DNA of 61,958 nucleotides from an uncultured Bifidobacteriaceae bacterium (GTDB lineage: Bacteria > Acidobacteriota > Vicinamibacteria > Vicinamibacterales > CAVVIG01): the NCBI GenBank assembly GCA_964579765.1, contig CAZOIK010000267.1:1-61958 (forward strand), given 5' to 3'. The position numbers were made by a program, and so were the translations under genes. This document shows, piece after piece, positions 5,698-29,320 of this stretch. Positions within the stretch are counted from its first letter, which is position 1. Every line of letters begins with the position of its first letter. Under the pieces are notes generated by a model. That model was not told where the DNA came from. It ran no database searches and saw only the letters and a list, made by a program, of their open reading frames with translations.

Positions 5698-6156
5698 GTG
5701 CCGCCAGCTCTCGAGTTTGAATTCCGCATGCGCGTGCAGATTGGCGCGCCGCTCGACCAGGGCACCTGGGACGGCCAGCACCGGCGCGTCATGCCTATCG
5801 TCGGCGGGGCGTTCGACGGACCACGATTCTCAGGCACCATTCTGCCCGGCGGCGCAGACTGGCAGTCGGTGCGCGTGACCGACGGCGTCGCGCGGATCGA
5901 CGCGCGCTACACGCTGCGGCACGACGACGGCACGCTGGTCACGATGGTGGATCGCGGCGTACGGCGCGGGCCGCTCGAGGTCATGGCGCGGCTCGCGGCC
6001 GGCGAGGTCGTCGAGCCGTCGCAGTACTACTTCCGCACGACACCCCGATTCGAGGTTCAGGACGGCCCGCATCGGTGGCTCGCCGAGCACGTGTTTGTCT
6101 GCCAGGGACAGCGCCGCCCCGATGCGGTCGAACTCGAGATCTTTCGCGTGCGCTGA
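5698..6156 (+). CDS. DUF3237-family protein
   Basis: GTG start. The stretch ...VMPIVGGAFDGPRFSGTILPGGADWQSVRVTDGVARIDARYTLRHDDGTLV... matches my memory of the DUF3237 pattern. Confidence 0.65.
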   Translation: MPPALEFEFRMRVQIGAPLDQGTWDGQHRRVMPIVGGAFDGPRFSGTILPGGADWQSVRVTDGVARIDARYTLRHDDGTLVTMVDRGVRRGPLEVMARLAAGEVVEPSQYYFRTTPRFEVQDGPHRWLAEHVFVCQGQRRPDAVELEIFRVR

Positions 6157-11138: not shown

Positions 11139-13205
11139 TCAGTCGCGCGGCCCGTAATGCGGCGGCGCCTGGCCGACTTCGAGCGCACCGAGGTCGGGAG
11201 CCGCGCCGGCGAATCCGTCCGTGACGTTCGGCAGCGCCGTTCCGCGATCGACCGCATCGGATCCCGGCTTCAGCCTGAAGTCGAACGACTCCGCCTTGTA
11301 GACCTTCTGGACGGTCGCAACGTCCTGCGCGTCGAGCCTCGGGACGTTCATGAACACGTCGTAATCGACGAGCACGCTGTGCTGATCCTGATGCGTGGCG
11401 CGGCTGTACTCCTCGAGCGTGCGGTACTGCCGCGTTTCAAGCGACGACGGCACAGCGGCGGGCCGCGCGCCGCGTCCACGCAGCAACGGACTGTAGTCGG
11501 CAGCCGTCTCCCACGGCGGCGAGTTCCAGGCGAACGAATACGGCGCGCCGGCGTTCGGCCTGAAGCCGTTGTAATCCGACGAGGAGTAATTGGTGAACGT
11601 GTTGACGGCGAAAATAGCCGGCGACGAGTTCTCGCCGAGAAACAGGTTGTTCGCCCAGTGGACGTTCGAGGCGCCCTGCGCCTGCGTCTCCGAGAGCACG
11701 GTGTTGTTGTAGAAGATCGCGCCCGCCGAGCCGCCGGTCAGCCTCGTCGATCCGCCAGGCATGTGATACACGATGTTTCGAATCCAGTACACGGGCCCGC
11801 CGATCGCCGGCTGATTGCAGAACGCGTGCGACGCGGAGTTGATCATCATGTTCCGCATCACCCGCACGTTGTGCATGCTGCCGTCCACCTCGAACGGGTT
11901 GTCGTGGAAGTTGGTCATGTAGTTGTTGTAGTAGTCGATCGAGACCGTGCGCCGGTCGAAGTACTCGCGCGTCGGGTAGCTCGGTCCGCCCACTGCCGCC
12001 GAGCCGTCGGGATTGCCGTAGGTTTCCGTGTCGATGCCGTCGTGAAAATTCGCGACGTAGTTGTACGCGATGACGTGTCCCGGCCCGTACACCTTGACCG
12101 CGATGTACGATCCCATCACGGGCGGAAACTTCTGCCCGTCCTTGCCGTCGAACTTCTTCCAGAAATCGCCCGCCCAGCCGATGACGTGATTGGGATCGTG
12201 CCGGCCGATGAAGTAGTTGTCGGCGATGTAGAAGTTGCTCGAGCCCGAGTAGTTCGTGAACACGCCGGCCCCGATGTCCTCGAACCGGCAGTGTTTCACC
12301 GTGATGCCCTTGGCGCCGGCCAGGAACTGCGTGCCGGCGAGAATCGCGTAGTCGGTGTTCCGGAACGTCAGCCCCTCGAAGTACGTGTAGTCCGCGGCGC
12401 GCACGTCGAACAGCGTGAAGTTGCCGGCGCCGTCGAAGATCGCGGGACCGTCGCCCGCGCCCTTGATGACGATCGGCTTCTCGGCCGTGCCCTTCGCGAG
12501 CAGGTAGTACGTGCCGTCGAGCGGCGTCGTGCGGTTGACGGCCGGATTGTTCGTATATTCGTAGCGGTTGTATTTGTAGACGCCGGCATGCACGAGGATC
12601 GTGTCGCCGGCCTTCACGCGCGGCCGGCCGGCCGTCGCCCAGTCGGTACCGGCACACGTGAGGTTGTAGGCGCACATGAGGCCCTCGAACGACGGTTCGG
12701 TCTTCGCGCCCTTATAGCCCGGGGGATACACGTGATAGACGTGTCCGCCCGCGGCCGGCATCGGCTCGGGACGCGTTCTCACCGTGACGGTCTTCGCCGC
12801 CTGGCCGCTCACGCCGTCGGGATCGCGGAGCACGAACCGCGCTTCGTAGGCCGTATTCGGTTCAAGATCGAGGATGCTGCCGGCGAACATGTTCGGCGAG
12901 ACGACGTCGAGCTGATCGCCCTGCTTGATGCGCTCGCCCTGAAGCCGCAGCAGCGGCAGCGCCGACTTCCACTCGGTCGTGCCCTGCTTCCGGTACGACA
13001 CGTCCACCGACGCGTTCCGGTTGTCGTCGCCCTGGACGAACCACTCGAAACCGAGGTTGATCAGCGTCGGCGGATCGACGATGAATTCGCCAGCGGCAAC
13101 CGCCCTGCCCGCTGTGGCGGCAGCGACCCGGTGCCGGAGCCATCCGCCGATGACGACGCTGAACACGAGCGTGAGTGAAAGCGTTCGGAGTGCGGCTGTC
13201 TTCAT
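11139..13205 (-). CDS. exported right-handed parallel beta-helix repeat protein (pectate-lyase-fold; glycosidase/lyase-like)
   Basis: 688-aa ORF with a signal-like N-terminus. It has repeated ...NxxIxxN/G-type beta-helix-like segments (FRNTDYAILAG, ITVKHCRFEDIGAGVF, NFYIADNYFIG, VRVMRNMMINS). Confidence 0.65.
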   Translation of the reverse strand: MKTAALRTLSLTLVFSVVIGGWLRHRVAAATAGRAVAAGEFIVDPPTLINLGFEWFVQGDDNRNASVDVSYRKQGTTEWKSALPLLRLQGERIKQGDQLDVVSPNMFAGSILDLEPNTAYEARFVLRDPDGVSGQAAKTVTVRTRPEPMPAAGGHVYHVYPPGYKGAKTEPSFEGLMCAYNLTCAGTDWATAGRPRVKAGDTILVHAGVYKYNRYEYTNNPAVNRTTPLDGTYYLLAKGTAEKPIVIKGAGDGPAIFDGAGNFTLFDVRAADYTYFEGLTFRNTDYAILAGTQFLAGAKGITVKHCRFEDIGAGVFTNYSGSSNFYIADNYFIGRHDPNHVIGWAGDFWKKFDGKDGQKFPPVMGSYIAVKVYGPGHVIAYNYVANFHDGIDTETYGNPDGSAAVGGPSYPTREYFDRRTVSIDYYNNYMTNFHDNPFEVDGSMHNVRVMRNMMINSASHAFCNQPAIGGPVYWIRNIVYHMPGGSTRLTGGSAGAIFYNNTVLSETQAQGASNVHWANNLFLGENSSPAIFAVNTFTNYSSSDYNGFRPNAGAPYSFAWNSPPWETAADYSPLLRGRGARPAAVPSSLETRQYRTLEEYSRATHQDQHSVLVDYDVFMNVPRLDAQDVATVQKVYKAESFDFRLKPGSDAVDRGTALPNVTDGFAGAAPDLGALEVGQAPPHYGPRD

Positions 13206-14974: not shown

Positions 14975-15157
14975 TAAAGAATGCGTTCCTAAGTTGGTGA
15001 TGGCGCGCGACTTTTGGCGATAAATTTTTCAAATCAATAGAGTTACGTTGAGGTTACTCGTACACCGGGGTCCCCTGCTGTCCGCGAGATTCCGCCGTTG
15101 GCGTGGAGACATTCTGGAGAGCTCTTCCGCACGAGGATCGTCTCTTAGCGCTCAGCG

Positions 15158-15625
15158 TCAGTGCGCGCTCGTGTGACTGACATCGTTGCGGATCCCGGAC
15201 GTCCAGCGATCCAGCGCCAGGAGGCTTCCGAGCACCAGCAGAAGACCTCCGATCGCCAGCACCATCAGCGGAGCCGACTCTCGTCCCGTGAGCGTCAATT
15301 GATTCACGGTGGTCACAATTGTGGTCTCCATGACGAGGGCGACGCTGACCCGATGCTCACGAAGATAGAAGATCAGAGTGCGGTAGAGCTCGGTCAGGAT
15401 CAGAATGTACAGAATCTGCGACAGCACGACCGACGGGCTCGCGGTCCTCAGGACCGCCGTGCGAAACAACGTCATCACGGCGGAGATCGCGATGCCGAGC
15501 AGCACGACCATCAGGCCGATAATGACGACGTCCTGGGCATTCTCGAGCACGCGCCTCAGAAGATGATGGACCTGCGTGTGCGGCGGCGGAACCCGCTGTT
15601 CCGCGTTCGTCGAGTCGTGCATCAT
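15158..15625 (-). CDS. psiE: PsiE-family (phosphate-starvation-inducible) membrane protein
   Basis: 155 aa with 4 predicted TM segments. The core ILYILILTELYRTLIFYLREHRVSVALVMETTIVTTV resembles PsiE. Confidence 0.65.
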   Translation of the reverse strand: MMHDSTNAEQRVPPPHTQVHHLLRRVLENAQDVVIIGLMVVLLGIAISAVMTLFRTAVLRTASPSVVLSQILYILILTELYRTLIFYLREHRVSVALVMETTIVTTVNQLTLTGRESAPLMVLAIGGLLLVLGSLLALDRWTSGIRNDVSHTSAH

Positions 15626-15640
15626 GCGCGGGCGTGATGG

Positions 15641-17530
15641 CTAACGATGATCGGCGGTTTCCACGGGTTCCGCGTCAATCACTTCTCCTTCCTTCGGCGC
15701 GCCCGGCCCGGGCTGGGACTGTTGCTGTGACTGCTGCTGATAGAGCGTCTGCGCCAGCGCATGCGCGGCGTGCTGCAACGCCTCGGTGGCCGTCCTCATC
15801 GCCCCCGGATCGTCGCCCTGGGACACCTTTCGCACGTCTTCGATCATCGATTCGATTCGACTGAGTTCTCCGACAGGAATTTTCTGGCGGTTGTCGCTGA
15901 TCGTCTTCTCGACGCTGTAGGCGAGCGCGTCGGACGCGTTGCGCGCCTCAATCAGCTCCCGCCGGCGCTGGTCTTCGCCCGCGTGCTCCTGCGCGTCCTT
16001 GACCAGCCGATCGACGTCCTCTTTCGTCAGGCCGCTCGTGGACGTGATCGTGACCTTCTGCTCCTTCGCGGTGGCGAGATCTTTCGCCGAGACGTTCACG
16101 ATGCCGTTGGCGTCGATGTCGAACGTCACCTGGATTTGCGGCACGCCGCGCGGCGCCGGCGGAATGCCCACGAGCTGGAATCTCCCGAGCGTGCGGTTGT
16201 CCTTCGCCAAAGGCCGCTCCCCCTGAAGGACGTGGACTTCGACGTTGGCCTGGTTGTCGGTGGCCGTGGCGAACGTCTCGCTCTTCTGCGTGGGAATCGT
16301 GGTGTTTCGCGGGATCAGCACGGTCATCACACCGCCGAGCGTTTCGATGCCCAGCGACAGCGGCGTGACGTCGAGCAGAAGGATGTCTTTCACGTCGCCC
16401 GCAAGCACGCCGCCCTGCACCGCCGCGCCCACCGCCACTACTTCGTCGGGGTTCACGCCCCTGTGCGGCTCTTTCCCGAAGAAGTCCTGAACGAGCTGCT
16501 GGATCTTCGGCATGCGCGTCAAGCCGCCGACAAGCACGACCTCGTCGATCTCTTTGGGATCCACGCCGGCGTCGGCGAGGCATTTACGGACGGGCGCCAT
16601 CGAACGCTGCAGCAGGTCGTCGACCAACTGCTCGAGCTTCGCACGCGTCAGCCTGAGCTGCAGATGCTTCGGTCCATTCTGATCGGCGGTGATGAACGGG
16701 AGGTTGATGTCCGTCTCCATCGCCGATGAGAGCTCGATCTTCGCCTTCTCCGCCGCTTCCTTGAGGCGCTGCAGGGCCATGCGGTCGGTGCCGAGATCGA
16801 TGCCCTCACTCCTCTTGAACTCCTCGGTCAGCCACTGCATCACGCGATCATCGATGTCGTCGCCGCCAAGATGCGTGTCGCCGTTCGTGGCCTTGACCTC
16901 CACGACGCCGTCACCGACTTCGAGCACCGAGATATCGAACGTGCCGCCGCCGAAGTCGTACACGGCGATTGTCTCGTCGTTCTTCTTGTCGAAGCCATAG
17001 GCAAGCGCGGCCGCGGTCGGCTCGTTGATGATGCGGCGGACGTTGAGATCGGCGATCTTGCCGGCGTCCTTGGTGGCCTGTCGCTGCGCGTCGTTGAAGT
17101 ACGCCGGAACGGTGATGACCGCGTCGGTGACTTTCTCGCCGAGATGCGCCTCGGCGGCGTCTTTCAACTTTCGGAGGATGAGCGCCGAGATTTCCGGCGG
17201 TGAGTACTGCTTCCCCCGCACCTCCACCCACGCGTCGCCGTTCCTGGCGCGGACGATCTTGTACGGAACGCGTCTGGACTCGTCGGCGACTTCGTCGTAC
17301 TGGCGGCCCATGAACCGCTTGATCGAGAAGATGGTGTTCTCGGAGTTGGTGACCGCCTGGCGCTTGGCGACCTGGCCGACAAGCCGCTGGTTGTCCTTCG
17401 TAAACGCCACGACCGAGGGCGTCGTCCGGGAGCCCTCCTGATTCACGATCACCTCGGGCTGCGCGCCCTCCATGACGGCAACGACCGAGTTGGTCGTGCC
17501 GAGATCGATACCGATGACTCGATTGCCCAT
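15641..17530 (-). CDS. dnaK: molecular chaperone DnaK (Hsp70)
   Basis: [39 protein letters not shown] and a full-length Hsp70 layout. No grpE or dnaJ is adjacent. Confidence 0.95.
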
Positions 17531-17558
17531 GAATGTGTCTCCGCGTGATGCGTGGCCG

Positions 17559-18233
17559 TTAAGGACGCGACGAACTTCGCTGGCGTCCGGTGAACCGGAG
17601 GCCGAAGCTCACCGGCACCAGCGTCGTTGCGGTCGGTGTGGTTCTCGCGTAGTGATAGCGCACCTCGACGAACGCCGATGCACCGCTGTCGCCGAACGGG
17701 AACAGAAGGCCGCCGCCCGCATTTGCCCCGAAGGCGTCCTCGCTGACCGAGCCCAGGACCTGGTTCGCGGGAACAACGACGGGACCGATGTATCCCCACC
17801 ATGGATCGACGACGTCGATGACGCCGACCGTCGGCGCCGTAAATTCGACCGTTCGCCGGTACCAACCGAGGCTGCCGAGAACGTAGCCATGCAGCATTCT
17901 GGCGATCGGGAATCTCCAGATCGGTCCGGCGGTCAGGGAGAAGACCCGTCCGGTGCCGTTCGGCACCTGCAGCTGCTGCAGCACCGAGTCGCGCACGCCG
18001 AGGTGGTTGAAGGTGAACTCGCCGAAAAGGCCGAAGCCATTGTCGAATGCCGGCCCGCCGCGCAGATCGACGTCCCATCCTGTCCTGAGCCTGCTGCTGA
18101 TGTCACCCACCGTCGCCGATGCGCCAACGCCGAGATCGACGCTCCAGTTCGTCTCCGCTCGTGCCTGAGTGATCGAGAGCAGACAAACCAACGACACCGC
18201 AACGACCGAACCGAACAGCCTTTTCCAAGTCAT
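17559..18233 (-). CDS. outer-membrane beta-barrel protein (OmpW/OmpA-barrel-like)
   Basis: Internal Met [26 protein letters not shown] (signal). It has alternating beta-strand patterns and the terminal ...[10 protein letters not shown]-like strand. Confidence 0.6.
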
Positions 18234-18274
18234 GTGCTCGCTCCGCATGATGTGAGATACCTGCAGGCGGTCGT

Positions 18275-18288
18275 GCAACATGGCTGCC
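18275..18288 (-). promoter_or_regulatory. sigma54 -24/-12 promoter for the OMP-dnaK-psiE operon
   Basis: The reverse complement reads cGGCAGC-CATG-TTGCA (consensus TGGCACG-N4-TTGCW) with correct GG-N10-GC spacing. It lies about 42 nt upstream of the ATG at 18233. Confidence 0.55.
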
Positions 18289-18306
18289 GATCCGAGAACA
18301 TCACGC

Positions 18307-18320
18307 GGCAAGCTGCTTGC
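18307..18320 (+). promoter_or_regulatory. sigma54 -24/-12 promoter for hsp20
   Basis: cGGCAAG-CTGC-TTGCC with correct spacing, 62 nt upstream of the ATG at 18382. Confidence 0.6.
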
Positions 18321-18381
18321 CTCCCGTCGAACGTTCACACCACGTCAATCCGCGGACCGTTCGCGTAAGAGGAGGCATGAG

Positions 18382-18972
18382 ATGGCACAAACGGAAGTGA
18401 GACAGCAGGACAGCGCCACCGCACTGCAGCAGCGACAGGGACACAACAACCAGCAAAGACAGGGGGCCAACGATCAGATCGCGCGCCGGCAGGCGTACCG
18501 GTTCATGAGCCCGTTCGCGCTGCTTCAGCGCATGCTCACCGACGACATCGCGAACCTTTTCGATCAGCAAGGCAGCCGCGCCGGCGGTCAGATGGCCGGC
18601 ACGGGTCCGAGCACTGCAAGCGACATGGTGACCTGGTCGCCGAAAGTCGACGTCATGCAACGCGGAAACGATCTCGTGATTCGCGCGGATCTCCCGGGCG
18701 TGAAACCTGAAGACGTGTCTGTCGAAGTGACCGATGATGCGATCGTGATGTCGGGGCAACGCAAGGAAGAGCACGTCGAGGACTGGGGCAACGTCTACCG
18801 TGTGGAGCGGACCTACGGCGCGTTCTTCAGGGAGATTCCCCTGCCGGAAGGCGCGATCGTCGATCAGGCGAAGGCGTCGTTCACCGACGGCGTCCTCGAG
18901 GTGACGGTGCCGGCGCCGTCCGAACAGGCCGCGCGCGGCCGTCGTCTGGAAATCAACAGCAGTAAGCAGTAA
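18382..18972 (+). CDS. Hsp20/alpha-crystallin small heat-shock protein
   Basis: ATG at 18382 preceded by AAGAGGAGG. Alpha-crystallin domain WSPKVDVMQRGNDLVIRADLPGVKPEDVSVEVTDDAIVMSGQRKEE...FTDGVLEVTVP. Confidence 0.9.
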   Translation: MAQTEVRQQDSATALQQRQGHNNQQRQGANDQIARRQAYRFMSPFALLQRMLTDDIANLFDQQGSRAGGQMAGTGPSTASDMVTWSPKVDVMQRGNDLVIRADLPGVKPEDVSVEVTDDAIVMSGQRKEEHVEDWGNVYRVERTYGAFFREIPLPEGAIVDQAKASFTDGVLEVTVPAPSEQAARGRRLEINSSKQ

Positions 18973-19000
18973 CGCGATAAATCGCGAGTTCGCGACGGTT

Positions 19001-19037
19001 CGGCAGCTGCGGCGGTCTTCAACACCCGCGGCTGCCG
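19001..19037 (+). terminator. hairpin downstream of hsp20 (possible terminator)
   Basis: CGGCAGCTGCGG-N13-CCGCGGCTGCCG (12-bp stem, 1 mismatch). There is no clear U-tract. Confidence 0.3.
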
Positions 19038-19048
19038 GCCGCTCCGCG

Positions 19049-19062
19049 GGCACGCCGCTTGC
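19049..19062 (+). promoter_or_regulatory. sigma54 -24/-12 promoter for the HdeD-like gene
   Basis: gGGCACG-CCGC-TTGCC, an almost perfect consensus. It implies a very short leader to the ATG at 19080 or 19089. Confidence 0.65.
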
Positions 19063-19079
19063 CTTGGAGCCTTCCCGGG

Positions 19080-19616
19080 ATGCTATCCATGGATCAATCA
19101 AGTCTCCTGATCATCAGAGGGCTTGTCGGGATTGCCCTCGGCGTGCTGGCGATGTTCTGGCCCGGCATCACGCTCGTGATTCTCGTGGGCATCTTCGGCG
19201 TGTATGCAATTCTCGACGGGCTCGCGAATCTCCTGCTCGGCTTCAGGAGCTCGCACCGCCGCTCGTGGCCGCAGATCATCCAGGGCTTGGTGGGGATCGG
19301 TGCCGGCGTGCTGACGTTCATCTGGCCGACGGTCACCGCATTGGCGCTCGTGCTCTTCATCGGCGCCTGGGCGATCGTGACCGGCGTGCTCGAGATGGTT
19401 GCCGCCGTCCGTCTGCGCAAGATGATCAAGGGCGAGTGGCTGCTCGCGCTGAGCGGCATCATGTCCATGCTGTTTGGCGCGCTCGTCTTCGCCTTCCCGG
19501 CCGCTGGCGCCGTCGGCATCGCCTGGCTACTCGGCATCTATGCCGCTGCCGCGGGCGTCGTATTGGTGACGCTGGCGCTCCGCATCCGTACGCATCAGCC
19601 CATTCCGGCGACCTAA
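19080..19616 (+). CDS. HdeD-family / DUF308 acid-resistance membrane protein (copy 1)
   Basis: Six hydrophobic segments with the DUF308 repeat pattern (LLIIRGLVGIALGVLAMFWPG..., IIQGLVGIGAGVLTFIWP..., LLALSGIMSMLFGALVFAFP). Track ORF 19059 starts at TTG; ATG 19080 is preferred. Confidence 0.8.
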   Translation: MLSMDQSSLLIIRGLVGIALGVLAMFWPGITLVILVGIFGVYAILDGLANLLLGFRSSHRRSWPQIIQGLVGIGAGVLTFIWPTVTALALVLFIGAWAIVTGVLEMVAAVRLRKMIKGEWLLALSGIMSMLFGALVFAFPAAGAVGIAWLLGIYAAAAGVVLVTLALRIRTHQPIPAT

Positions 19617-19792
19617 ACATTGGAGAAGCTGTGGCCCGCGTCCTGACAGCCGGCGCCCTCGCCACGGGTTCGCGCTGGTGGGGAGTCAGGATCTCCTCAC
19701 CTCGACAGGGGTTCAGCTCGACGCCGGAAGGATCATGCCCCTCGGGATCGCCTTCGACCACACGGCTGCTGTGCCCTGCCCCAGCCATTTCG

Positions 19793-19806
19793 GGCACAGC
19801 CAATGC
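19793..19806 (+). promoter_or_regulatory. weaker sigma54-like promoter upstream of the atypical receiver gene
   Basis: GGCACA-GCCA-ATGC with correct spacing, but the -12 is ATGC. It lies 47 nt upstream of the ATG at 19853. Confidence 0.4.
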
Positions 19807-19852
19807 GTCACTCGCACGTGTCTCTCAACGCCGAGTCCCGACCATCCACTCA

Positions 19853-20425
19853 ATGCGTCCGGTCGCACTCCTCGTCGATCGCAGCGCCGACAACCGTCGC
19901 ATGTACGCGGAGTATTTACGATTTGTCTCGTGGCGCAGCGAGGAGGCGACGGACGGACGCGACGGCTTCATAAAGGCGCTCACGCGCCCTCACGATGCCA
20001 TCGTCATGGAGACGCGGCTGGCGTTCATCAGCGGGTTCGAACTGTGCCGCATCCTCAAGCACGATCGGCTCACGGCGGCCGTGCCGATCGTCTTCGTCAC
20101 CGGCGACGGCTTCCGTTCGAACGTCGAACACGCGCGCCGGGCCGGCGCCGACTCCGTGCTCGTCAAGCCCTGTCTGCCTTCGAGCCTGGCCGTCGAACTC
20201 AATCGGTTGCGTGTCCACCAACCGCCGGACAGGGTGGCGAGCGCCGGCCGAAGACGACTCGCGAAATTGACACGCTCACTCGTGCGATGCCCGTCATGCC
20301 ACGGCCGTCTCCTCGATCTCAGTCGCGCTGACGCTCTCGGGCGGTTCGACTACGTCTTCTGTAGCGTAGCCTGCGGCACCTTCGGCTACCGCCGCGAAGC
20401 GACGCGAGAGCGGAAGGCCTTGTGA
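19853..20425 (+). CDS. atypical response-regulator receiver (Glu at phospho-acceptor position) with C-terminal zinc-ribbon
   Basis: Last 190 aa of track ORF 19064..20425. MRPVALLVDRSADNRRMY...AIVMETRLAFISGFEL...VFVTGD...VLVKPC, then RCPSCHG...FCSVACG. Confidence 0.7.
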   Translation: MRPVALLVDRSADNRRMYAEYLRFVSWRSEEATDGRDGFIKALTRPHDAIVMETRLAFISGFELCRILKHDRLTAAVPIVFVTGDGFRSNVEHARRAGADSVLVKPCLPSSLAVELNRLRVHQPPDRVASAGRRRLAKLTRSLVRCPSCHGRLLDLSRADALGRFDYVFCSVACGTFGYRREATRERKAL

Positions 20426-20462
20426 GGCACCGGAGTTGCTCCTGGCGTGCCGGGAGGGACTC

Positions 20463-21206
20463 ATGAAGTTATCGCTTGTATTGGCGACGGCGCTGGCCGT
20501 CGCGGCAACGGCGCCCGAGAAGGCTGACCTGAAAGACGTCACACGCCATGCGGACAAATACATCGGCAAGACAATCGCCGTGGACGGCGAAGTCATGGAT
20601 GTGCTCGGACCGCATCTCTTCGTCGTGGACGCTCCGCGCTGGTTTCATCTCTTTGGCGGCATGGTCGTCGTCGTGCCGGAGCCGTTCGCGGCCATCGTGC
20701 GGCGGGATGCCCCGATTCACGTGACGGGGACCGTCGAGAAGGTCGTGTTGGCGGAAGCAAGGCGGAGGTGGGCGTTCCTGAGTGATCCCGCCATCGAGGT
20801 GGATCTCTTCGAGAAGCCGGTCATCGTCGCGAGCGAAGTGACGACCATCGCGCCGAGCGTCGTCAGCCTCAGGTTTCAACCTGGACAGCCCACGGCAGGT
20901 TCACGTGGCGACACGACGATTAAAGACGCCGGCACGATCGCGAAAGCCGGCGACAGCTCGATGGCCGGACGTCACGTCGACTTGAGCGGCACCGTGTCGC
21001 GTACGGTGGGCGAAGGATTCTGGCTGAAGACGATGTCTGGCGACGAAGTGTTCGTGCTTCCGGCATCGAAGACGTCCGTGCGGCCATCGCAGAGTGTCGC
21101 GGTGCAGGGTACGCTGCTCGAATCGCCGCGACGTTCGTCTGGCCAAGCTGCGCCCGCCACGAAACAGCCGACGTACGTGTATGCCGACAAAGTGACGCCG
21201 AAGTAG
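20463..21206 (+). CDS. hypothetical exported protein with two internally repeated modules
   Basis: MKLSLVLATALAVAATAP signal. The modules GKTIAVDGEVMDVLGPHLFVVD...IHVTGTV and GRHVDLSGTVSRTVGEGFWLKT...VAVQGTL look like a duplication. Confidence 0.6.
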   Translation: MKLSLVLATALAVAATAPEKADLKDVTRHADKYIGKTIAVDGEVMDVLGPHLFVVDAPRWFHLFGGMVVVVPEPFAAIVRRDAPIHVTGTVEKVVLAEARRRWAFLSDPAIEVDLFEKPVIVASEVTTIAPSVVSLRFQPGQPTAGSRGDTTIKDAGTIAKAGDSSMAGRHVDLSGTVSRTVGEGFWLKTMSGDEVFVLPASKTSVRPSQSVAVQGTLLESPRRSSGQAAPATKQPTYVYADKVTPK

Positions 21207-21226
21207 CCCGGCGGCAGCCGAGGACA

Positions 21227-22327
21227 CTACGACCGACCGAAGCGATAACGCTGCTTGTCGATGTTGTAGCGTCTAATCTTCGATTCGAGCGTCGACGGCG
21301 GGAGCCCCAGACGCGCGGCCGCGCCCGACAGACCAGACACGCGTCCTCCCGTTGCCGTCAGGGCGTCTTCAATCAGCCGCTGTTCGTTTTCCTCGAGCAC
21401 GGCGTCGAGGCGCGATCCGGGTTTCCGGACAGGGCGCTCAGCGAGAAGGCCCGCCGGGATTTCGAGCAGCGGCCCGTCACACAGAATGGCGCTCTGTTCG
21501 ACGATGTTTTCGAGTTGGCGGATGTTGCCCGGCCAGCTGAACGCCTCCATCCGTGCGAGCGAGTTCGGCTGGACGCCACTGAACTGTCGGCCAAGCTTCC
21601 GCTCCGCCTGACGTAGAAAATGGTACACGAGCGCCGGAATGTCCTCCGCGCGCTCGCGAAGCGCGGGCAGATGAATCGGGAACACGCTCAAGCGGTAGTA
21701 CAGGTCCACACGAAATCGCTGCTTCGCCACTTCGTCCTCCAGGTCACGGTTCGTCGCCGCGATCAGGCGAATGTCGACACGCTTGGTCTGCGAGCTGCCG
21801 AGGCGTTCGAACTCTCCTTCCTGCAGCACGCGCAGCAGCGCGACCTGCATCTCGTTCGACAACTCGCCGACTTCGTCGAGAAAGAGAGTCGCGCGATCGG
21901 CCTGTTCGAACCGCCCGATCCGGCGCTGCACCGCGCCGGTGAACGCGCCGTGCTCATGACCGAACAGCTCCGAGGAGATCAGCGTCTCGGGAATGGCGCC
22001 GACGTTCACCGCGAAGAACCGATGGCCCGCGCGCTGTGACCTGCGATGAATGGCCCTCGCGGCGAGCTCCTTGCCGGTACCGGTCTCCCCGGTGATCAGC
22101 ACCGTGGCGTTGGTCGGCGCCACGCGCTCGATGCGGTCGGACGCGTCTCGGAACGCTTGCGATCGGCTGGAAATACGATCCATCGACCGCCTGTCGCGCG
22201 CCGATTCATTCCGCTCCAGAGGGTGGGGCGTCGGACGTGGACCTGACCGTGTCGCATCGTCTTCTGACATCGCGTACATGCTTTCCTCCGGACGATCTGA
22301 ATCAGACTCGAACAGTACTGCGTCCAT
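21227..22327 (-). CDS. sigma54-dependent transcriptional activator (bEBP) lacking any N-terminal sensory domain
   Basis: AAA+ core [19 protein letters not shown], the GAFTGA loop in [13 protein letters not shown], and [15 protein letters not shown]-terminal Fis-type [23 protein letters not shown]. Only about 60 acidic residues precede the AAA+ core. Confidence 0.9.
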
Positions 22328-22364
22328 CGATGGCGCTCAAGCTCGTACAACTACGTGGCCTGGC

Positions 22365-24185
22365 TTACAGCAGAACGATGTGATGCTTGATCGCGTACTG
22401 CACAAGCTCGGCGATCGTGTGCAGGTCGAGCGACTTCATCGCCGCGTAGCGATGAAACTCAACGGTCCTAGGGGAGATCCCAAGTGCGGTGCTGATTTGT
22501 TTCGTACTTCGCCCTTCAGCGGCCAGCTGCACGACTTCTCGCTGCCGTCGAGACAGTCTGTCCAAGCCAGTCCGCGCAGCGCCACGACGATGAACGCTGG
22601 TCTCGATTGCCTGCTCGTTCACGGCCGACGACATGAAGCTGCGGCCGGCAAGCACTTCCCGAATGGCCGTCAGGATTTCAGTGCCTGCCGAGCTTTTGAG
22701 GGAGAGGCCATGAATGTCTTTCGCGAGTCCGCCAATCAGCTCGGTCACTTTCAACAGCGGGCCGGCGAGCGCCTGCCCGGACTGCCCCGACGCCTCTGAG
22801 ATCCGCGCGACCTCCATGCCGATCGCCGCGAGGCGCTGACTGAAGACGTCGTGCAGTTCGTGGGCCAGGTGCTTGCTCTGCACTTCCTGGCCTTCGATCA
22901 GCCTCATTGTCAGGTCCTGCAGTACGGCCGAGCTTCGCTTGGACTCGACCATCTCTGCCGCCTGCCTGGCGTACAGGTCGGTCATCCGAAGAACGAGAGC
23001 GTCCGGTCGATAGGGGCGCCGGAAGTACGTCGAGATCACGCCGAGCGGCTGCCGGCTTCCGCTCAACATCGGTGTCGAGTGTACGGCCCGTACCTGCGCG
23101 GCCAGCGCGGCCTGACGGTACGGAGCGAACGCGGGATCAGTTTCGACGTCTTCGACAATGACGTGCGTGTATTCGCGGAGAGCGCGGGCGTACGTGCTCC
23201 CGCCTTCGGCGCCACCATCAAGAAACGAGTCGAGGGACTCCGTCGCGATCCCTCGGTAGGCCAGTACCTCGAACCGCCCGCTTTCAGGGTTGTGGAGCTG
23301 GAGGGTGCCTGCATCGGCGCCCTGCAGAGCCACGATCGCCTCGAGCGCCTCGTCCAGCAGCTGGTCGAGATTCATTTCCGCGTAGAGCCGGGTGCTGAAC
23401 TCGTGAAGGCGCGTCATCGCCGCCAACCCCAGCGACAGGACGTTCTTCAGCGCGATCGTCTCCATTTCGGCGCGCCTCCGCTCGGTGATGTCCTGCACGA
23501 GGCCCACGAAGAAATCGACGCTCCCGTCGGCGCGCCGCTGGCATCGCGCGGCCATGATGCTGTCGATCACCTCTCCGTTCTTGCGGATCCATCGCTTGTC
23601 CATCGAATAGCCGTCGATCTCGCCGGCCATCACGCGAGTAAATTGCGCGAGATCGGCGGCGAGATCGTCGGGGTGGGTCATTTCCGCCCAGGTTTTCTGC
23701 AACAGCTCGCTTCGCTCGTAGCCGAGAATCCGGCACAGCTCGTTGTTGACTTCGAGAATGCCCTTCGATACCGACGTGATCGCCATGCCGACCATGCCGA
23801 TCTCGAAGCAGCGACGGAGGCGATCGTCGCTTTCGCGGAGGGCCAGCTGAGACTGTTTCTGATCGGTAATGTCGATTAGCGTGTTGACGGTGCTCAGAAG
23901 AGCGCCGGACGCGTCCCGCAGCGCTTCGGGATAACAGATGACGCTGCGGCGCGTGCCGTCAGGACGCTCGACGAGCAATTCCTCGCCGCGAACCTCGCGA
24001 TAGAGCTTGAATGACCCGCACCAGCGATCGGTATTCAGCTCGGGCGTGCGTCCCCATAATGCGCGCGCCGCTTCGTTATACAGCGTGATCCGCCCGTCGG
24101 CATCGCAGGTGTAGATCGCGACGGGCAGACTCTGAACAAGTAGAGAGTCTTGCTCGGTGCGCCGCGCGTGCTCTGGGGCGCCCAT
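22365..24185 (-). CDS. PAS-PAS-GAF-HisKA_3 :: LuxR(GerE) HTH chimeric regulator (no HATPase_c, no receiver Asp)
   Basis: Two PAS-like blocks, a GAF-like block, the H-box HLAHELHDVFSQRLAAIG, then directly ...LKSSAGTEILTAIREVLAGRSFMSSAV (tail of a NarL-type receiver). The C-terminus is the GerE HTH LSRRQREVVQLAAEGRSTKQISTALGISPRTVEFHR. Confidence 0.8.
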   Translation of the reverse strand: MGAPEHARRTEQDSLLVQSLPVAIYTCDADGRITLYNEAARALWGRTPELNTDRWCGSFKLYREVRGEELLVERPDGTRRSVICYPEALRDASGALLSTVNTLIDITDQKQSQLALRESDDRLRRCFEIGMVGMAITSVSKGILEVNNELCRILGYERSELLQKTWAEMTHPDDLAADLAQFTRVMAGEIDGYSMDKRWIRKNGEVIDSIMAARCQRRADGSVDFFVGLVQDITERRRAEMETIALKNVLSLGLAAMTRLHEFSTRLYAEMNLDQLLDEALEAIVALQGADAGTLQLHNPESGRFEVLAYRGIATESLDSFLDGGAEGGSTYARALREYTHVIVEDVETDPAFAPYRQAALAAQVRAVHSTPMLSGSRQPLGVISTYFRRPYRPDALVLRMTDLYARQAAEMVESKRSSAVLQDLTMRLIEGQEVQSKHLAHELHDVFSQRLAAIGMEVARISEASGQSGQALAGPLLKVTELIGGLAKDIHGLSLKSSAGTEILTAIREVLAGRSFMSSAVNEQAIETSVHRRGAARTGLDRLSRRQREVVQLAAEGRSTKQISTALGISPRTVEFHRYAAMKSLDLHTIAELVQYAIKHHIVLL

Positions 24186-24218
24186 TCCTTGTTATAGCGC
24201 ACTTACGCACCCGTCGGC

Positions 24219-24770
24219 CTAGCTTGCACGAATCTCTTCAGCGAGTTGGCGCAACCGCAGCGCGAGCGAGAGGACGATTAACGCAAACAACCAGACATAC
24301 GATCCAATGACCCACCCGGGATCAGGCACGCCGACGGGTGACAGCGCCAACACCCCGCACAGGATCGAAAGCAAACCGGCAAGCGGCAGCGGCCACTCAC
24401 CGCTGAGATCCTTGCGAAGCGCAATGGCTACCGCAATCGAGGCGGCGCCGCACAGTAGCGCCCACACGGCAAAGACATTCACCAGCCTGTATGCGGTGGC
24501 CGCGGGTGCGGCAAACACCACCGCCCCGACGACCACGCGGACGATTGCGTCGAAAAGAAAGCTGCCGAAGCCCTCGTGCCCCTTCACGCCGATCGCGATG
24601 ATCAACGCGATGACGCCGTCGGTCAGCGCGTATGCGCCGAACAGCCACGCCAATTGCGTCATGGTCAGATTGGGCCACCACGTCATCACGCCACCGAACG
24701 AGGCGGCGATCACGACGCGCAGCAGCACGAATCCCCAGTTGGCAGCAAGCGCAGCGAGCATTGCCAGCAT
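24219..24770 (-). CDS. HdeD-family / DUF308 membrane protein (copy 2)
   Basis: Last 183 aa of track ORF 24219..25112 (MLAMLAALAANWGFVLLRVVIAASFGG...). A GGAGGA lies just upstream; the alternative start is 24761. Confidence 0.8.
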   Translation of the reverse strand: MLAMLAALAANWGFVLLRVVIAASFGGVMTWWPNLTMTQLAWLFGAYALTDGVIALIIAIGVKGHEGFGSFLFDAIVRVVVGAVVFAAPAATAYRLVNVFAVWALLCGAASIAVAIALRKDLSGEWPLPLAGLLSILCGVLALSPVGVPDPGWVIGSYVWLFALIVLSLALRLRQLAEEIRAS

Positions 24771-24781
24771 TCCTCCGTCGG

Positions 24782-25462
24782 TTAGAACCCGATCGTGATG
24801 CGGTTGTCCACCTCGATTACGCCCGGCGCGGCCCACGCCTGACGAGCGGCTTCCTCCTTCTCCGCCCATGAGCGCACGGTCCCTCTCAGAGTCACCTTGC
24901 CACCGTCGACGTCCACGGTGATCTTCTGCGCGTCGCTCTGGGCCGTTCGCACCAGCGCGTCCTCGATCTTCTTCTTCAGGTCCGCAGGCGCCGGCCGGGC
25001 CTTCACTGTGATGAGGTTCGACACGCCTTTCACGCCGGTGAGACGGCGGACGACGCGCTCGGCGTCGTCGCGCTGGAACTGCCAGTCGACCTCGCCCTTC
25101 AGCGTCACCCACGCGTTCGAGACAGTGACGTCGAGCCGGTCAATCGGAAGGAACGCGTCCCACTCCAACGCGCGCACCGCGGCGGCCGCGATGTCCGCGT
25201 CCGTGCGTTTATCATCCTTCGACAGCCTGACCTCGACGTCGTTGGCCACGGCCGTGACGCCGCGCACGCGATGGGCCGCGTCTTCGGCCGCCCAGCGCTT
25301 GGTGTAGGAGTCCACCCATCCGGTCAACGTGACGACGCCGTCCTTGACGGAGACGCCAATCTCGCTTGCGTTGACCCGCGGCTCCCACTTCAGTTCGGCG
25401 AGCACGTCCTGCTGAATCTGCGTATCCGTTCGTGTCTCAGTTGCAAGTGCCATCGTAGTCAT
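24782..25462 (-). CDS. BON-domain protein (three BON repeats, OsmY-like)
   Basis: [20 protein letters not shown]..., with three repeats of ...[12 protein letters not shown]...K..AE.AA..V.GV..V.N.I.V. The start is 25462 or 25453. Confidence 0.85.
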
Positions 25463-25509
25463 TCCTTTCGGTTGTCGGTTGTGTCCGACGTCGTGAACAC
25501 GCTCGGAAC

Positions 25510-25523
25510 GCAATGCCCGTTCC
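25510..25523 (-). promoter_or_regulatory. sigma54-like promoter for the BON/HdeD operon
   Basis: The reverse complement reads cGGAACG-GGCA-TTGCG with correct spacing. It lies about 48 nt upstream of the ATG at 25462. Confidence 0.45.
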
Positions 25524-25587
25524 GTCATGCCCTCACGAATCTGCGAGGGGCGGGGCTTCATCACGGACCGGCCACGGCGTGCGAATG

Positions 25588-25605
25588 CTCGCGACCAATC
25601 GCGAG
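25588..25605. promoter_or_regulatory. perfect palindrome CTCGCGA-CCAA-TCGCGAG midway between divergent sigma54 promoters (candidate bEBP UAS)
   Basis: Read directly. It is 65 bp from the minus-strand -24 and 68 bp from the plus-strand -24. A related CGCGA-TAAA-TCGCG lies at 18973-18986, upstream of the promoter at 19049. Confidence 0.4.
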
Positions 25606-25672
25606 CGCGCGAATTTTCATGATCAGGGATCCCCAGCCGTGCGCGCGCGGCGCTGAATCGTCGGGACGCGGC

Positions 25673-25687
25673 TGGCACCGCAGTTGC
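25673..25687 (+). promoter_or_regulatory. sigma54 -24/-12 promoter for the second BON gene
   Basis: TGGCAC-CGCAG-TTGCC, a perfect consensus, 59 nt upstream of the ATG at 25746 (SD AAGGAG). Confidence 0.7.
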
Positions 25688-25745
25688 CCTTCCGTCGCGG
25701 CGCCGCGCGATAGGGCGCGGCGGTTCTCTTCCAAGGAGTTGCGAG

Positions 25746-26363
25746 ATGAAAAGCCGACTGGCGATTCTATTCGGCGGGCTAGGCCTGATCCTGTCAGCCG
25801 CGGCTGCGACGACACGCGCGCAGAATTCGGCAGTGGAGGCGATCCGCAAGGAGCTGTTACAGCTTCCGTACTATGGCGTCTTCGATTTTCTGGCGTTCAG
25901 TTACGACAGGGGGACCGTCACGCTCAAGGGCTATGCGTACGCCCCCGGGCTGAAGAAGGACGCCGAACACGCGGTCAAGCGCGCCGCAGGCGTCGATCAG
26001 GTCGTCGACATGATCGAGCAACTCCCTCCGTCCCAGGCCGACGACGAGCTCCGCTGGAAGACCTACTACGCGATTTACCGCGATCCGTTTCTCGCGAGGT
26101 ACGCGCCGGGCGGAGGCATGTTGTGGGGACACCGCCACGCGTTTTCCGGCCCGTTCTCTCCTATGGGAGCGGGGCCATTCCTCGCCTACGAGGCCGCGGG
26201 CGACTACCCGATCCACATCATCGTGAAGAACCTGCGTATCCTGCTGTTGGGCGTCGTGGACAACGGGAGCGACAAAATGCTGGCCGGTGTCCGCGCGCGT
26301 GACGTGCCTGGATCGCTCGGCGTCGACAACCAGCTGGTCGTCGAAGCCTCGCACACCAACTAG
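25746..26363 (+). CDS. exported BON-domain protein
   Basis: Signal [29 protein letters not shown]-like [35 protein letters not shown] and [42 protein letters not shown]. Confidence 0.8.
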
Positions 26364-26415
26364 ACGGCCCGAGCCATCGACACACGGGGTTCGTCCGTGT
26401 GCCGATGACACCTCG

Positions 26416-26799
26416 CTACTTGGTGCTCGGCTCGATGCGCGTCACGCTCTCGCAGTCGGTGAGCACCACGGGAACGCCGGCCGTCGGATGCACTGTCGGC
26501 TTGACCGCGCATGTGACATCCACTTTCTGACCGACCTTGACGTCACCAAGCTTCTCGCCGGTGGCCGCCGGCACCGGCAACGTGATCTCGACGGGCTTGC
26601 CCGGCGCCACGGGCACCGCGGCGACGTCGCGAACGGTAATCGTCTTCGCTTGCGGATCGACCGCGACGACCTCGACGGCGACCGGCGCGATGTCCGAGGC
26701 CGAGCTGCTTCTCTGCTGCTGCTGTCGCTGTTGGGCCGCGACGCCCTGCGCCAGGAATACCGCGACGCCGACGGTGATTGCGAAACCGAATGGCTTCAT
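26416..26799 (-). CDS. small exported protein, unknown function
   Basis: Signal MKPFGFAITVGVAVFLAQGVAA followed by a Gln-rich linker and a beta-rich C-terminus with two Cys. Confidence 0.55.
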   Translation of the reverse strand: MKPFGFAITVGVAVFLAQGVAAQQRQQQQRSSSASDIAPVAVEVVAVDPQAKTITVRDVAAVPVAPGKPVEITLPVPAATGEKLGDVKVGQKVDVTCAVKPTVHPTAGVPVVLTDCESVTRIEPSTK

Positions 26800-26889
26800 G
26801 CTGTCTCCTTGGGGAGCGATGCGGAGGCTCCCGAAAGGCGCGACTGTTCACAAACAACGCCAATCGCCTCGGAGATCGACCCCTTCTCG

Positions 26890-27357
26890 ATGCAGGCGTT
26901 TCGTGCAGAACCGCTCGTGATCGTTCGCGAATCCTCGGATTCTCGTGTTCGTCCGACGGTCCGATTCGTGCACTTTTCCGGCACTGAGATACTCGTGAAT
27001 CTCGAATATTTCAGACGGCGACTCGAGGACATCGAAGCCGAGCTTCTTCGGAAGCGCGAACGCGCTGTCGCGCAGGCCCCTCGCACGAGCGAAGGCGACG
27101 TCGCCGACTCCGGCGATCGCGCGGTCGTCGACGAGCTGAAGGACGAGTACTTCGCGTTCACGGAAGCAGACCTCGAAATCCTCGTGCAGGTCCGCGCCGC
27201 GCTCAGGCGCATCGACGATGGGACGTTCGGGTTATGTGCCGTCGATGGCCGGCCCATCGACGAGAAGCGCCTCGAGGCCCAGCCATGGACGCCCTATTGC
27301 CTGCAGCACCAGCGGGAACTCGAAGAGCGGCAGCGAGTGCGGACGCCGACGCTGTAG
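26890..27357 (+). CDS. DksA/TraR-family protein with degenerate zinc finger
   Basis: C-terminal part of track ORF 26287..27357. Coiled-coil region ...EYFRRRLEDIEAELLRK...EADLEILVQVRAALRRIDDGTFGLCAVDGRPIDEKRLEAQPWTPYCLQHQ. The start is uncertain (ATG 26890 or GTG 26995). Confidence 0.6.
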   Translation: MQAFRAEPLVIVRESSDSRVRPTVRFVHFSGTEILVNLEYFRRRLEDIEAELLRKRERAVAQAPRTSEGDVADSGDRAVVDELKDEYFAFTEADLEILVQVRAALRRIDDGTFGLCAVDGRPIDEKRLEAQPWTPYCLQHQRELEERQRVRTPTL

Positions 27358-27358
27358 T

Positions 27359-27621
27359 TCAGTACTCGGCAAAGACCTCGTCGTTGTAGCAGTACAGCAG
27401 CGCTCACCCGGCTCCGCCGACGCGATCACCGGATGATGGCTCGAGCGGGCGTGCTTGCTCGCGCGTTTATTGGGCGAGGAGTCACAGCACAGCGTCACGC
27501 CGCATGCCTGGCAAGTCCGCAGATGAACCCACGGATCGCCGGTCCTCATACACGCTTCGCAGACGTGGACGCGCGGCGGCTTAACCGTCGAGAGGTTTTC
27601 GATGTCGGCACACGCAGCCAT
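27359..27621 (-). pseudogene. UBP-type zinc-finger protein with a 1-nt frameshift near the 3' end
   Basis: CEACMRTGDPWVHLRTCQACGVTLCCDSSPNKRASKHARSSHHPVIASAEPGER, then the frame is lost. The -1 frame continues LYCYNDEVFAEY*, the expected family ending, stopping at 27359-27361. The present ORF instead reads on to 27232. Confidence 0.65.
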
Positions 27622-27657
27622 GCTGCGGGCCTGTGCATAAAAGCGCACCTGCGCAGC

Positions 27658-27671
27658 GGCTCACTGATTGC
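27658..27671 (+). promoter_or_regulatory. weak sigma54-like element upstream of the TrxR-like relic
   Basis: GGCTCA-CTGA-TTGCG with correct spacing, but only 15 nt from the ATG at 27686. Confidence 0.3.
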
Positions 27672-27685
27672 GCCACGCGAGCGTT

Positions 27686-28480
27686 ATGGCCGACGAGTCT
27701 CCGCCCACGCCGCCGAACGTCGTCAAGGTGCTCGGCAGGACCGCCTCGCCGCCGTGCTACGCGATACGCGACTTCCTCTACCGCAACGACGCGCCCTTCG
27801 AATGGATCGAAGTGAACAACCCCGACGCGCCGATGCCCGTGTGCGTGTTTGCGGACGGAACCCGGCTCGAGCGGGCCGACGTTCAGCGCATCAGCGACAA
27901 GCTGGGATGGTTTCACGACGTATCCCGGTCGGAATACGACGTCGCGATTTACGGCGCGGGACCGGCCGGGCTGAGCGTCGCCGTCTACGCTGCCTCCGAG
28001 GGATTGAAGACCGTCGTCGTCGAACGATGGGCGATCGGTGGACAGGCCGGCAGCAGTCCAAAGATAGAGAACTACCTGGGGTTTCCCCAAGGCATCAGCG
28101 GCGCGGAGCTGGCGGAGCGGGCGCGGGAACAGGCGTGCGCGTTTGGCGCAGAGACTCTGATCGCGCGCGAAGGAGTTCGAGGCGAGTTCACGGCGGGCAA
28201 GCGTGTCGGCTATCTCGCCGACGGCACGAAGGTCGTCGCACGGGCGGCGATTTGCGCGACCGGCATCGACTACCACCGGCTGAGCGTGCCGAACGAGGAG
28301 AACCTCCGGGGCGCGGGCGTCTACTACGGCGCAGGTGCGAGCGAAGCGCAGCTGTGCATCGGCCTCCCGTCGTCATCGCCGGCGGCGGCAATTCCGCGGC
28401 GCAGGCCACGCTGCACTTCTCGAAGTACTCACCACATGTCACGCTCGTGGTTCGCGGCAGCGGACTCAAGGATATGGTCG
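27686..28480 (+). pseudogene. glutaredoxin-like + thioredoxin-reductase-like flavoprotein, frameshifted (~28362) and 3'-truncated (~28480)
   Basis: Frame 1: VKVLGRTASPPCYAIRDFLYRNDAPFEWIEV...YDVAIYGAGPAGLSVAVYAA...GAGASEAQLCIG. Frame 2 continues PPVVIAGGGNSAAQATLHFSKYSPHVTLVVRGSGLKD. After that the similarity ends; the NADPH domain and C-terminus are missing. Confidence 0.7.
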
Positions 28481-28569
28481 ACAATCAGATCGTAGCCATC
28501 CGGATTCAGAAACCGCTGAAGCAGCTGAACCTGATCAACCGAATCGTCGATGACGAGGGCGCGAGGCAT
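28426..28569 (-). pseudogene. relic of a second response-regulator gene (first ~27 codons only)
   Basis: The ATG overlaps the upstream TAA by 1 nt (TAATG). MPRALVIDDSVDQVQLLQRFLNPDGYDLIV is a typical receiver N-terminus. It then runs into antisense TrxR-like sequence and stops. Confidence 0.55.
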
Positions 28570-29048
28570 TACGCGCGTCCTTCTACACATGCGGTGTCGT
28601 GATTGCGGCTGATGCGTCCGGTGGTCGCCAGCGACACCGCTTCAAGCAGTCCGTTGATCGTGCAGGGCTTGTCGAGGAAGGCTTCGTCCTCCCACAGCAT
28701 GGCGCGGTCTGCAAACAAACGATCGCTGAAGCCAGTCAGGTACAGCACCTTCAAGGCTGGATCGTCCCGCCGAAGCAGCCGCGCAAGTTCGTCGCCGTTC
28801 ATGTGCGGCATCTGCAGGTCCGTCAGCAGCAAATCGATTCCGTCGATTTCGTGGACCAGTCGAAGCGCCTCCTCGGCGCCAGCCGCGCTCCATGTGGTGA
28901 CACCTGCCCCATTCAGCACTTGTTGCACAAACTTACGCACAGGCTCCTCGTCGTCGACAACGAGCACTCTGAGCGGGTGCCGCTCGAATGCCTGCGAATG
29001 TCGAGTCGACGCGACGACCATCGACAGGGTCCGCGACAGTGACATCAT
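28569..29048 (-). CDS. single-domain CheY-like response regulator
   Basis: LRVLVVDDEEPVRKFV...IDLLLTDLQMPHMNGDEL...KVLYLTGF...FLDKP. Start at MMSLSR (29048/29045). Confidence 0.85.
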   Translation of the reverse strand: MMSLSRTLSMVVASTRHSQAFERHPLRVLVVDDEEPVRKFVQQVLNGAGVTTWSAAGAEEALRLVHEIDGIDLLLTDLQMPHMNGDELARLLRRDDPALKVLYLTGFSDRLFADRAMLWEDEAFLDKPCTINGLLEAVSLATTGRISRNHDTACVEGRA

Positions 29049-29292
29049 GTGAGTCTCTCGATCAGCGTTCCACAATCGAGGCACTCGCGAACGCTGGCCA
29101 CAAGTGCTTCCTTTCGTACGGGGCTTCCGCCCGACACAGCAGGATGTGTGCCACGTCGGTTGCCGCCGGCAGGAAGACATTTCATGAAAGGAAGCGGACT
29201 CCTCCGGGTTGTTTTCCCCAAGGCGCGGGAATTATTCGCGGCGCATCCAGGCCGCGCCATGCGCTCAAGGCCCAAAATCGGCCTTTCGGCGA

Positions 29293-29307
29293 TGGCACCG
29301 CGGTTGC
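29293..29307 (+). promoter_or_regulatory. sigma54 -24/-12 promoter for the hybrid kinase gene
   Basis: TGGCAC-CGCGG-TTGCC. It is identical at 17 of 18 positions to the promoter at 25673-25690. Confidence 0.7.
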
Positions 29308-29320
29308 CCTGCACGGGCCC

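Follow-up and report, generated by a model that had tools for sequence, protein, structure and literature searches.

The sigma-54 activators PspF and HrpR/HrpS, which carry no sensory domain, need control in trans according to reviews (PMC7057263). PspF, known together with PspA from the phage shock response of E. coli, consists of the AAA+ core and the helix-turn-helix (HTH) domain only and serves a stress regulon. HrpR/HrpS of P. syringae, a tandem co-dependent pair with the partner HrpV, also lack a cis-regulatory domain (PMC7057263, PMC3105312). In Erwinia, Pantoea and Dickeya, the gene of the sensor-less HrpS adjoins the HrpX/HrpY two-component system, which comprises a PAS kinase and a FixJ/NarL-type regulator with a GerE HTH. 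Control is exerted there via synthesis of the activator: HrpX/HrpY activates hrpS in Dickeya, and the targets are hrpL and type III secretion (PMC2494611). The AAA+-only protein DctD250 was found to be constitutively active (PMC3844500).

We analyzed a stretch of 61,958 nucleotides (the window) harboring a single sensor-less sigma-54 activator gene in an island with chaperone and envelope genes. As in the HrpX/HrpY-HrpS systems, the activator gene adjoins genes for a PAS kinase and a regulator with a GerE HTH, an arrangement that points to control via activator synthesis. Judging from the sequence and from this analogy, we give a probability of roughly 0.6 to a transcriptional cascade of the HrpX/HrpY-to-HrpS type, with an activator that would be active once made. 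The locus differs from those systems in its predicted targets, which are dnaK, hsp20, BON and HdeD-like genes instead of hrpL and type III secretion, in its operator, which is new, and in the fusion of kinase and regulator to one another; furthermore, among named relatives, a metagenome-assembled genome (MAG) of the Acidobacteriota is closest.

The activator was also compared with other described systems. The activator shares with PspF the reduced architecture, and its core aligns from PspF residue 6, but its score of 257.8 bits, against a cut-off of 443.55 for the NCBIfam model TIGR02974, places it outside the PspF family. In addition, it has an extra N-terminal tail of 32 residues, and PspA (PF04012) is absent from the whole 5.04-Mb assembly, which extends the observation of an earlier note, made from the sequence alone, that no PspA-like gene is present in the island. 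In contrast to HrpR/HrpS, the activator is encoded by a single gene, and no small conserved partner resembling HrpV was detected in the locus. By sequence, the closest AAA+ cores are those of the GAF-containing activators of the NifA/FhlA type (PDB 9qq6 for NifA). However, the scores for NifA (337.9 bits) and FhlA (329.4 bits) are far below the equivalog cut-offs, none of which was reached by the activator in NCBIfam, and the activator has no GAF domain. A description of this family of sensor-less activators was not found in the literature.

Domain content and start of the activator

The activator gene is located on the minus strand and has the following parts.

21227..22279, minus strand: sensor-less enhancer-binding protein, probable coding sequence of 350 aa from M17, based on homologue starts and the Shine-Dalgarno sequence
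22183..22279, minus strand: N-terminal tail M17-S48, low-complexity and without a domain (alignment, Pfam)
21671..22168, minus strand: AAA+ sigma-54 interaction domain, residues 54-219 (PF00158), with the Walker B DE
21266..21397, minus strand: Fis-type HTH_8 DNA-binding domain (PF02954, E 9e-8)

The maximal open reading frame (21227..22327) translates into 366 aa. Pfam analysis revealed Sigma54_activat at residues 54-219 (E 7e-70), AAA_lid_14 at 224-289 and HTH_8 at 311-354 (32.2 bits, cut-off 22), and the sequence contains GETGTGKE, GAFTGA and LFLDEVGE. Thus, the protein combines an AAA+ core having Walker A, Walker B and GAFTGA with a C-terminal Fis-type HTH, as expected for an enhancer-binding protein, and the genome provides the matching context, with rpoN on contig C300 and -24/-12 promoters with enhancers near the activator gene. 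Alignment with 23 relatives showed that the activator is intact, every family-invariant residue being present. It yielded the only PF00158 match in the window, in agreement with the view of the earlier note that it is the sole enhancer-binding protein of the island; the assembly contains 39 such matches.

No Pfam match to REC, GAF, PAS or V4R was detected in the 366-aa frame, and with no N-terminal regulatory domain the protein falls into group V, the sensor-less enhancer-binding proteins. The possibility that an upstream start codon adds a sensor was examined: an in-frame TGA is located at 22339-22337, 12 nt upstream of M1, and a longer start is therefore impossible. Furthermore, the N-terminal 60 residues gave no Pfam match even at E<=10, and the tail between M17 and the core varies among 23 homologues and has low complexity. 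Together, the upstream stop, the Pfam search and the alignment rule out both an earlier start codon and an undetected domain at the N terminus. In the AlphaFold model, calculated with the alignment of 24 sequences, residues 1-49 had a pLDDT below 50; with a mean pLDDT of 58, the model was poor overall, and it supports disorder of the tail only weakly.

The protein is most likely shorter than 366 aa. In an alignment, the N termini of 23 close homologues, which have 339-362 aa and 61-85% identity, coincide with the M17 position or lie near it. This codon, ATG at 22279, is preceded by the Shine-Dalgarno sequence GGAGGA at 22289-22284, while M1 has no Shine-Dalgarno sequence and its ATG falls within the 17-nt spacer of a conserved promoter (see below). 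Since these three observations favor M17, the true product is most likely a protein of 350 aa with a tail of 32 residues. Hence, of the 366-aa activator with a leader of about 60 residues described in the earlier note, the absence of a sensor stands, whereas the start most likely has to be moved. The database gene call begins at M49 (22183) and gives 318 aa; compared with this call, too, the homologues and the Shine-Dalgarno sequence favor M17.

Regulator gene, operator/promoter element and related loci

The activator belongs to a large family of sensor-less activators of soil bacteria. The best 120 database relatives are 308-412 aa long, and none of them has a sensory Pfam domain. We compared 12 loci found via the protein, namely the window, L001 (the Acidobacteriota MAG, with an activator 72% identical), L026-L031 and L095-L098. 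In 11 of them (10 of the 11 relatives, usually together with a kinase gene), a gene for a GerE-type regulator precedes the activator gene on its own strand, one or two genes ahead of it. Two layouts were observed. In type A (window, L001, L028, L031 and L095), the regulator gene is directly followed by the activator gene. In type B (L026, L027, L030, L096, L097 and L098), the order is kinase with an ETR1_N domain, GerE regulator, stand-alone receiver and activator; ETR1_N is an ethylene-receptor-like domain. The receiver gene of this row encodes REC only (124-136 aa) and lies upstream of the activator gene in 6 of the 12 loci, at a distance of 18-90 nt, or 600 nt in L030.

In the type A locus L095, the leader that separates the activator gene from the operator/promoter (5840-5990) still encodes the C-terminal end of a stand-alone receiver (KAMEAGAICYLAKPFREGDLLDG). 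The deletion at this locus evidently took out the second kinase, the second regulator and most of REC. This receiver remnant suggests that type A loci were derived from type B by deletion.

In the window, the gene preceding the activator gene and the region between the two genes contain the following features.

22365..24185, minus strand: chimera of 606 aa, PAS-PAS-GAF-DHp(HisKA_3)::alpha5-GerE (Pfam, pairwise alignment)
22336..22356, minus strand: ACGTAGTTGTACGAGCTTGAG, the conserved operator/promoter element of 21 nt, with 0-3 mismatches in its copies at 14 other loci
22312..22340, minus strand: predicted sigma-70-type promoter, with -35 TTGAGC at 22340-22335, a 17-nt spacer and -10 TACTGT at 22317-22312

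The chimera gene shares the strand of the activator gene, and 38 nt separate its end from M1. Residues 401-495 correspond to residues 74-162 of the L001 kinase (58% identity) and residues 496-606 to residues 103-213 of the L001 regulator (70%), which places the junction at residue 495/496, around nt 22700. The protein lacks HATPase_c and the receiver Asp, the receiver being missing up to helix 5; the fusion is in frame, and the dimerization helix and the HTH are kept. From this alignment we conclude that, in this genome, kinase and regulator are fused by what reads as an in-frame deletion. The same architecture was not found elsewhere in a database of 5.8 billion proteins, where the nearest sequence was a complete kinase of 656 aa; the chimera sequence itself is recorded on two contigs. 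The fused regulator may be inactive here. Because the fusion has neither the ATPase nor the receiver Asp, synthesis of the activator is probably either locked on or directly governed by the PAS/GAF modules.

The element ACGTAGTTGTACGAGCTTGAG starts 8 nt past the stop codon of the chimera (GerE) gene. It contains the palindrome CGTA-N4-TACG (22355-22344), which abuts the -35 sequence TTGAGC. We place the transcription start near 22305, so that the center of the palindrome would lie about 44 bp upstream of it. Class II activators of the LuxR/FixJ type bind at this position. The predicted promoter emerged solely from conservation between loci; a scan with a generic sigma-70 consensus gave no match in the interval from the GerE gene to the activator gene. 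Since a terminator was not found in this interval either, read-through co-transcription may contribute to activator expression.

Conservation of the element is high. Via the loci found by protein, copies with up to three changes were detected in L001, L026, L027, L028, L031 and L095. A metagenome scan for the element alone returned 62 loci, mostly chance matches with other spacers; we counted only the form ACGTAG..TAC[GC]AGCTTGAG with a -10 sequence, which added L038, L044, L051, L075, L081, L084, L087 and L089 (L092 is the same contig as L028). The window copy is letter-perfect, and 10 of the 14 other copies are identical over the 17 fixed letters; in L031, the palindrome is a perfect 12-mer. 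In 14 of the 15 copies, the TTGAGN end is followed by 17-18 unconserved bases and TAnnnT, and the layout in L095 is the same; the flanks and the spacer are not conserved across loci. Eleven other loci have enough flanking sequence, and in each of them the element follows a REC-GerE gene at a distance of about 30-45 nt; in nine of these, the short activator or its operon lies downstream. The distance from element to activator is 160-280 nt, except in L026 and L027, where the element is followed by an operon of second kinase, second regulator, REC and activator.

The element was detected in all seven loci found via the protein that have an adjacent PAS/HisKA_3 kinase pair (including the window), and it was absent from L029, L030, L096, L097 and L098, of which the type B loci L030, L096, L097 and L098 have no adjacent HisKA_3 pair. 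A transcriptional cascade based on this element is thus not universal in the family. The sequence CGTAGGTGTACG of L029 was not counted, as it lacks AGCTTGAG. In the 5-Mb assembly to which the window belongs, the 21-nt element is present in a single copy. CGTAGTTGTACG recurs exactly at 12056-12067, within a gene for 688 aa that gave no Pfam match; since the AGCTTGAG half is missing there, this second copy probably reflects chance. Furthermore, L089 harbors a second full element with a -10 sequence on the opposite strand (oriented position 9329), facing away from the regulator gene. The regulator of L089 may have a second target there; the gene downstream is cut by the contig end.

Several genes travel together with the activator gene: a dnaK paralogue, a DUF308 gene, two BON genes and a gene for a small secreted protein. 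The convergent gene downstream of the activator (20436-21206) encodes 256 aa with a weak DUF5818 match in its extra part; its counterparts in L027, L031, L051 and L089 encode a secreted protein of 155-164 aa with 57-59% identity over about 113-124 residues. A sigma-54-like element lies near this gene, at 20425-20440. The GC3 of the island (about 15000-32000) is 0.70-0.80, compared with 0.85-0.90 in the flanks.

In the 40 nearest genomes, neither an orthologue of the activator nor the 21-nt element was found. The best match showed 53% identity, and the open reading frames of the matches were all at least 434 aa long, with one exception of 349 aa. Owing to this absence, the activator module looks patchily distributed, which is consistent with an acquired island; the lower GC3 points in the same direction.

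Sigma-54 promoters and enhancers of the predicted targets

A strict scan for TGGCAC-N5-TTGCW gave no exact match, and the sigma-54 promoters were located by a relaxed scan.

25589..25604: enhancer (UAS) TCGCGACCAATCGCGA between the divergent BON promoters, at 86 and 90 bp from the respective -12 elements
25509..25524, minus strand: sigma-54 promoter heading the row of BON3, DUF308b, chimera and activator genes
18972..18987: enhancer (UAS) ACGCGATAAATCGCGA, located upstream of the HdeD-like promoter at 82 bp from its -12
19048-19063: sigma-54 promoter of the HdeD-like (DUF308) gene
18289-18274, minus strand: sigma-54 promoter of OMP-dnaK-psiE
18306-18321, plus strand: sigma-54 promoter of hsp20, back to back with the preceding one

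The enhancers follow the motif TCGYGA-N4-TCRCGA, which is distinct from the operator palindrome. The distance of this motif from the -12 of GG-N10-GC promoters is 62-64 or 80-92 bp, both in the window and in eight or more relatives. The motif was detected at corresponding places in L001, L026-L031, L051 and L089, including the region between the divergent hsp20 and dnaK genes. The motif represented by TCGCGACCAATCGCGA occupies the equivalent place in L026-L030, and the arrangement of enhancer and promoter at the HdeD-like gene is repeated in L028 and L029. The earlier note had predicted sigma-54 promoters for the genes of chaperones and envelope-stress proteins, and these promoters look real.

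The hsp20 and OMP-dnaK promoters of the window are separated by only 16 bp (within 18274-18321). In L027, L028, L031 and L089, this region is about 110 bp longer and contains a shared enhancer (CGAAAAATCGCGGCTTCGTGAATCGTCGCGA), which suggests that the shared hsp20/dnaK enhancer was deleted in this genome. The order sigma-54 promoter, BON3, kinase, regulator, activator recurs in L031, L051 and L089. Since the sigma-54 promoter heads a row containing the regulator and the activator genes, a positive feedback loop is possible.

Proposed control by synthesis of the activator and alternative explanations

Taken together, the data point to control by the amount of activator, probably not by chaperones. 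We propose that the NarL/FixJ-type two-component system beside the activator gene senses a signal and that its response regulator binds CGTA-N4-TACG via the GerE HTH, switching on the activator gene from the weak sigma-70-type promoter. Once made, the activator would be intrinsically active, like other AAA+ cores without regulatory domains. It would then bind TCGYGA-N4-TCRCGA via its Fis-type HTH and remodel the sigma-54 holoenzyme at the -24/-12 promoters, the putative targets being the dnaK paralogue, hsp20, the two BON genes, the HdeD-like gene and the gene for the small secreted protein. The presence of two distinct conserved palindromes fits two DNA-binding proteins, and we infer the assignment of the promoter-proximal one to the regulator and of the distal one to the activator; the candidate operator could also be bound by a protein other than the GerE regulator. 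The earlier note had proposed control in trans, possibly by the coregulated chaperones. Control in trans is likely; given the adjoining GerE gene and the conserved operator/promoter, it is most probably transcriptional and does not run via a chaperone partner.

According to the chaperone titration model, the DnaK paralogue or Hsp20 silences the activator until unfolded proteins accumulate, perhaps as a second layer of control. Other bacteria are known to use DnaK feedback on sigma-32 and HspR. Here, dnaK is the most tightly linked of the conserved cytoplasmic genes, its product being 76-84% identical in 6 of 10 relatives and 52% identical in a seventh; at least two complete Hsp70 genes, this one included, as well as fragments are present in the genome. 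It is also in line with titration that PspA is absent and that comparison with the relatives revealed no conserved gene of unknown function fit to be a dedicated anti-activator in the locus; two island frames of 127 and 153 aa were rejected as anti-activators, as they are not conserved beside the relatives. However, if dnaK is itself a target, equipped with a sigma-54 promoter and an enhancer, its linkage is to be expected and needs no further explanation, and the N-terminal tail of the activator, the possible docking site, is not conserved. With nothing in its favor beyond the linkage, we regard chaperone titration as very unlikely. In the relatives, a stand-alone receiver appears to be a better candidate for a protein partner than the chaperones. 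The corresponding explanation is a split NtrC, in which the receiver, phosphorylated by a neighboring kinase, gates the AAA+ ring in trans. The REC-only gene in the type B row and the REC remnant in the activator leader of L095 argue for it, and they hint at an additional input at the protein level in half of the relatives. This input is absent in the window: it contains no REC-only orthologue, the best matches being generic, with 27-30% identity to unrelated receivers, and the receiver at 19853..20425 is not conserved beside the relatives. A REC-only partner of the window activator is thus rejected, and a split NtrC cannot explain control in this genome; we hold it to be highly improbable.

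The circuit in this genome looks damaged by the fusion and by the missing hsp20/dnaK enhancer, and it could be decaying altogether, as part of a degenerating acquired island in which the activator is constitutive or absent and no meaningful control is left. In line with this are the lack of any counterpart to the chimera, the loss of about 110 bp with the shared enhancer in comparison with four relatives, and the absence of activator and element from the nearest genomes. On the other hand, no family-invariant residue of the activator is lost, the operator/promoter shows no change, two enhancers remain intact, as do the corresponding sigma-54 promoters, and the in-frame fusion retains both the dimerization helix and the HTH. 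We therefore consider complete decay unlikely. A broader reading, decidedly doubtful in our view, combines these elements into a mobile stress switch of soil genomes with two tiers that reinforce each other, with a split NtrC and possibly DnaK feedback in its ancestral form and a stripped-down, deletion-locked version in the window. In this switch, the sigma-54 promoter would drive BON3, kinase and regulator, and the regulator would drive the activator; in the ancestral form, a stand-alone receiver would also gate the AAA+ ring in trans.

The preferred reading, a transcriptional cascade that sets the amount of a sensor-less activator, bears on a group of organisms that is abundant in soil and genetically almost unstudied: the Acidobacteriota, here with 39 sigma-54 activator hits in one assembly. 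The analysis yields a large family of sensor-less activators, two precisely predicted DNA sites and a candidate proteostasis and envelope-stress regulon. The lesions in this genome constitute a natural experiment on a collapsed sensing tier. In a wider context, the logic of HrpXY-to-HrpS control may reach beyond the secretion systems of plant pathogens.
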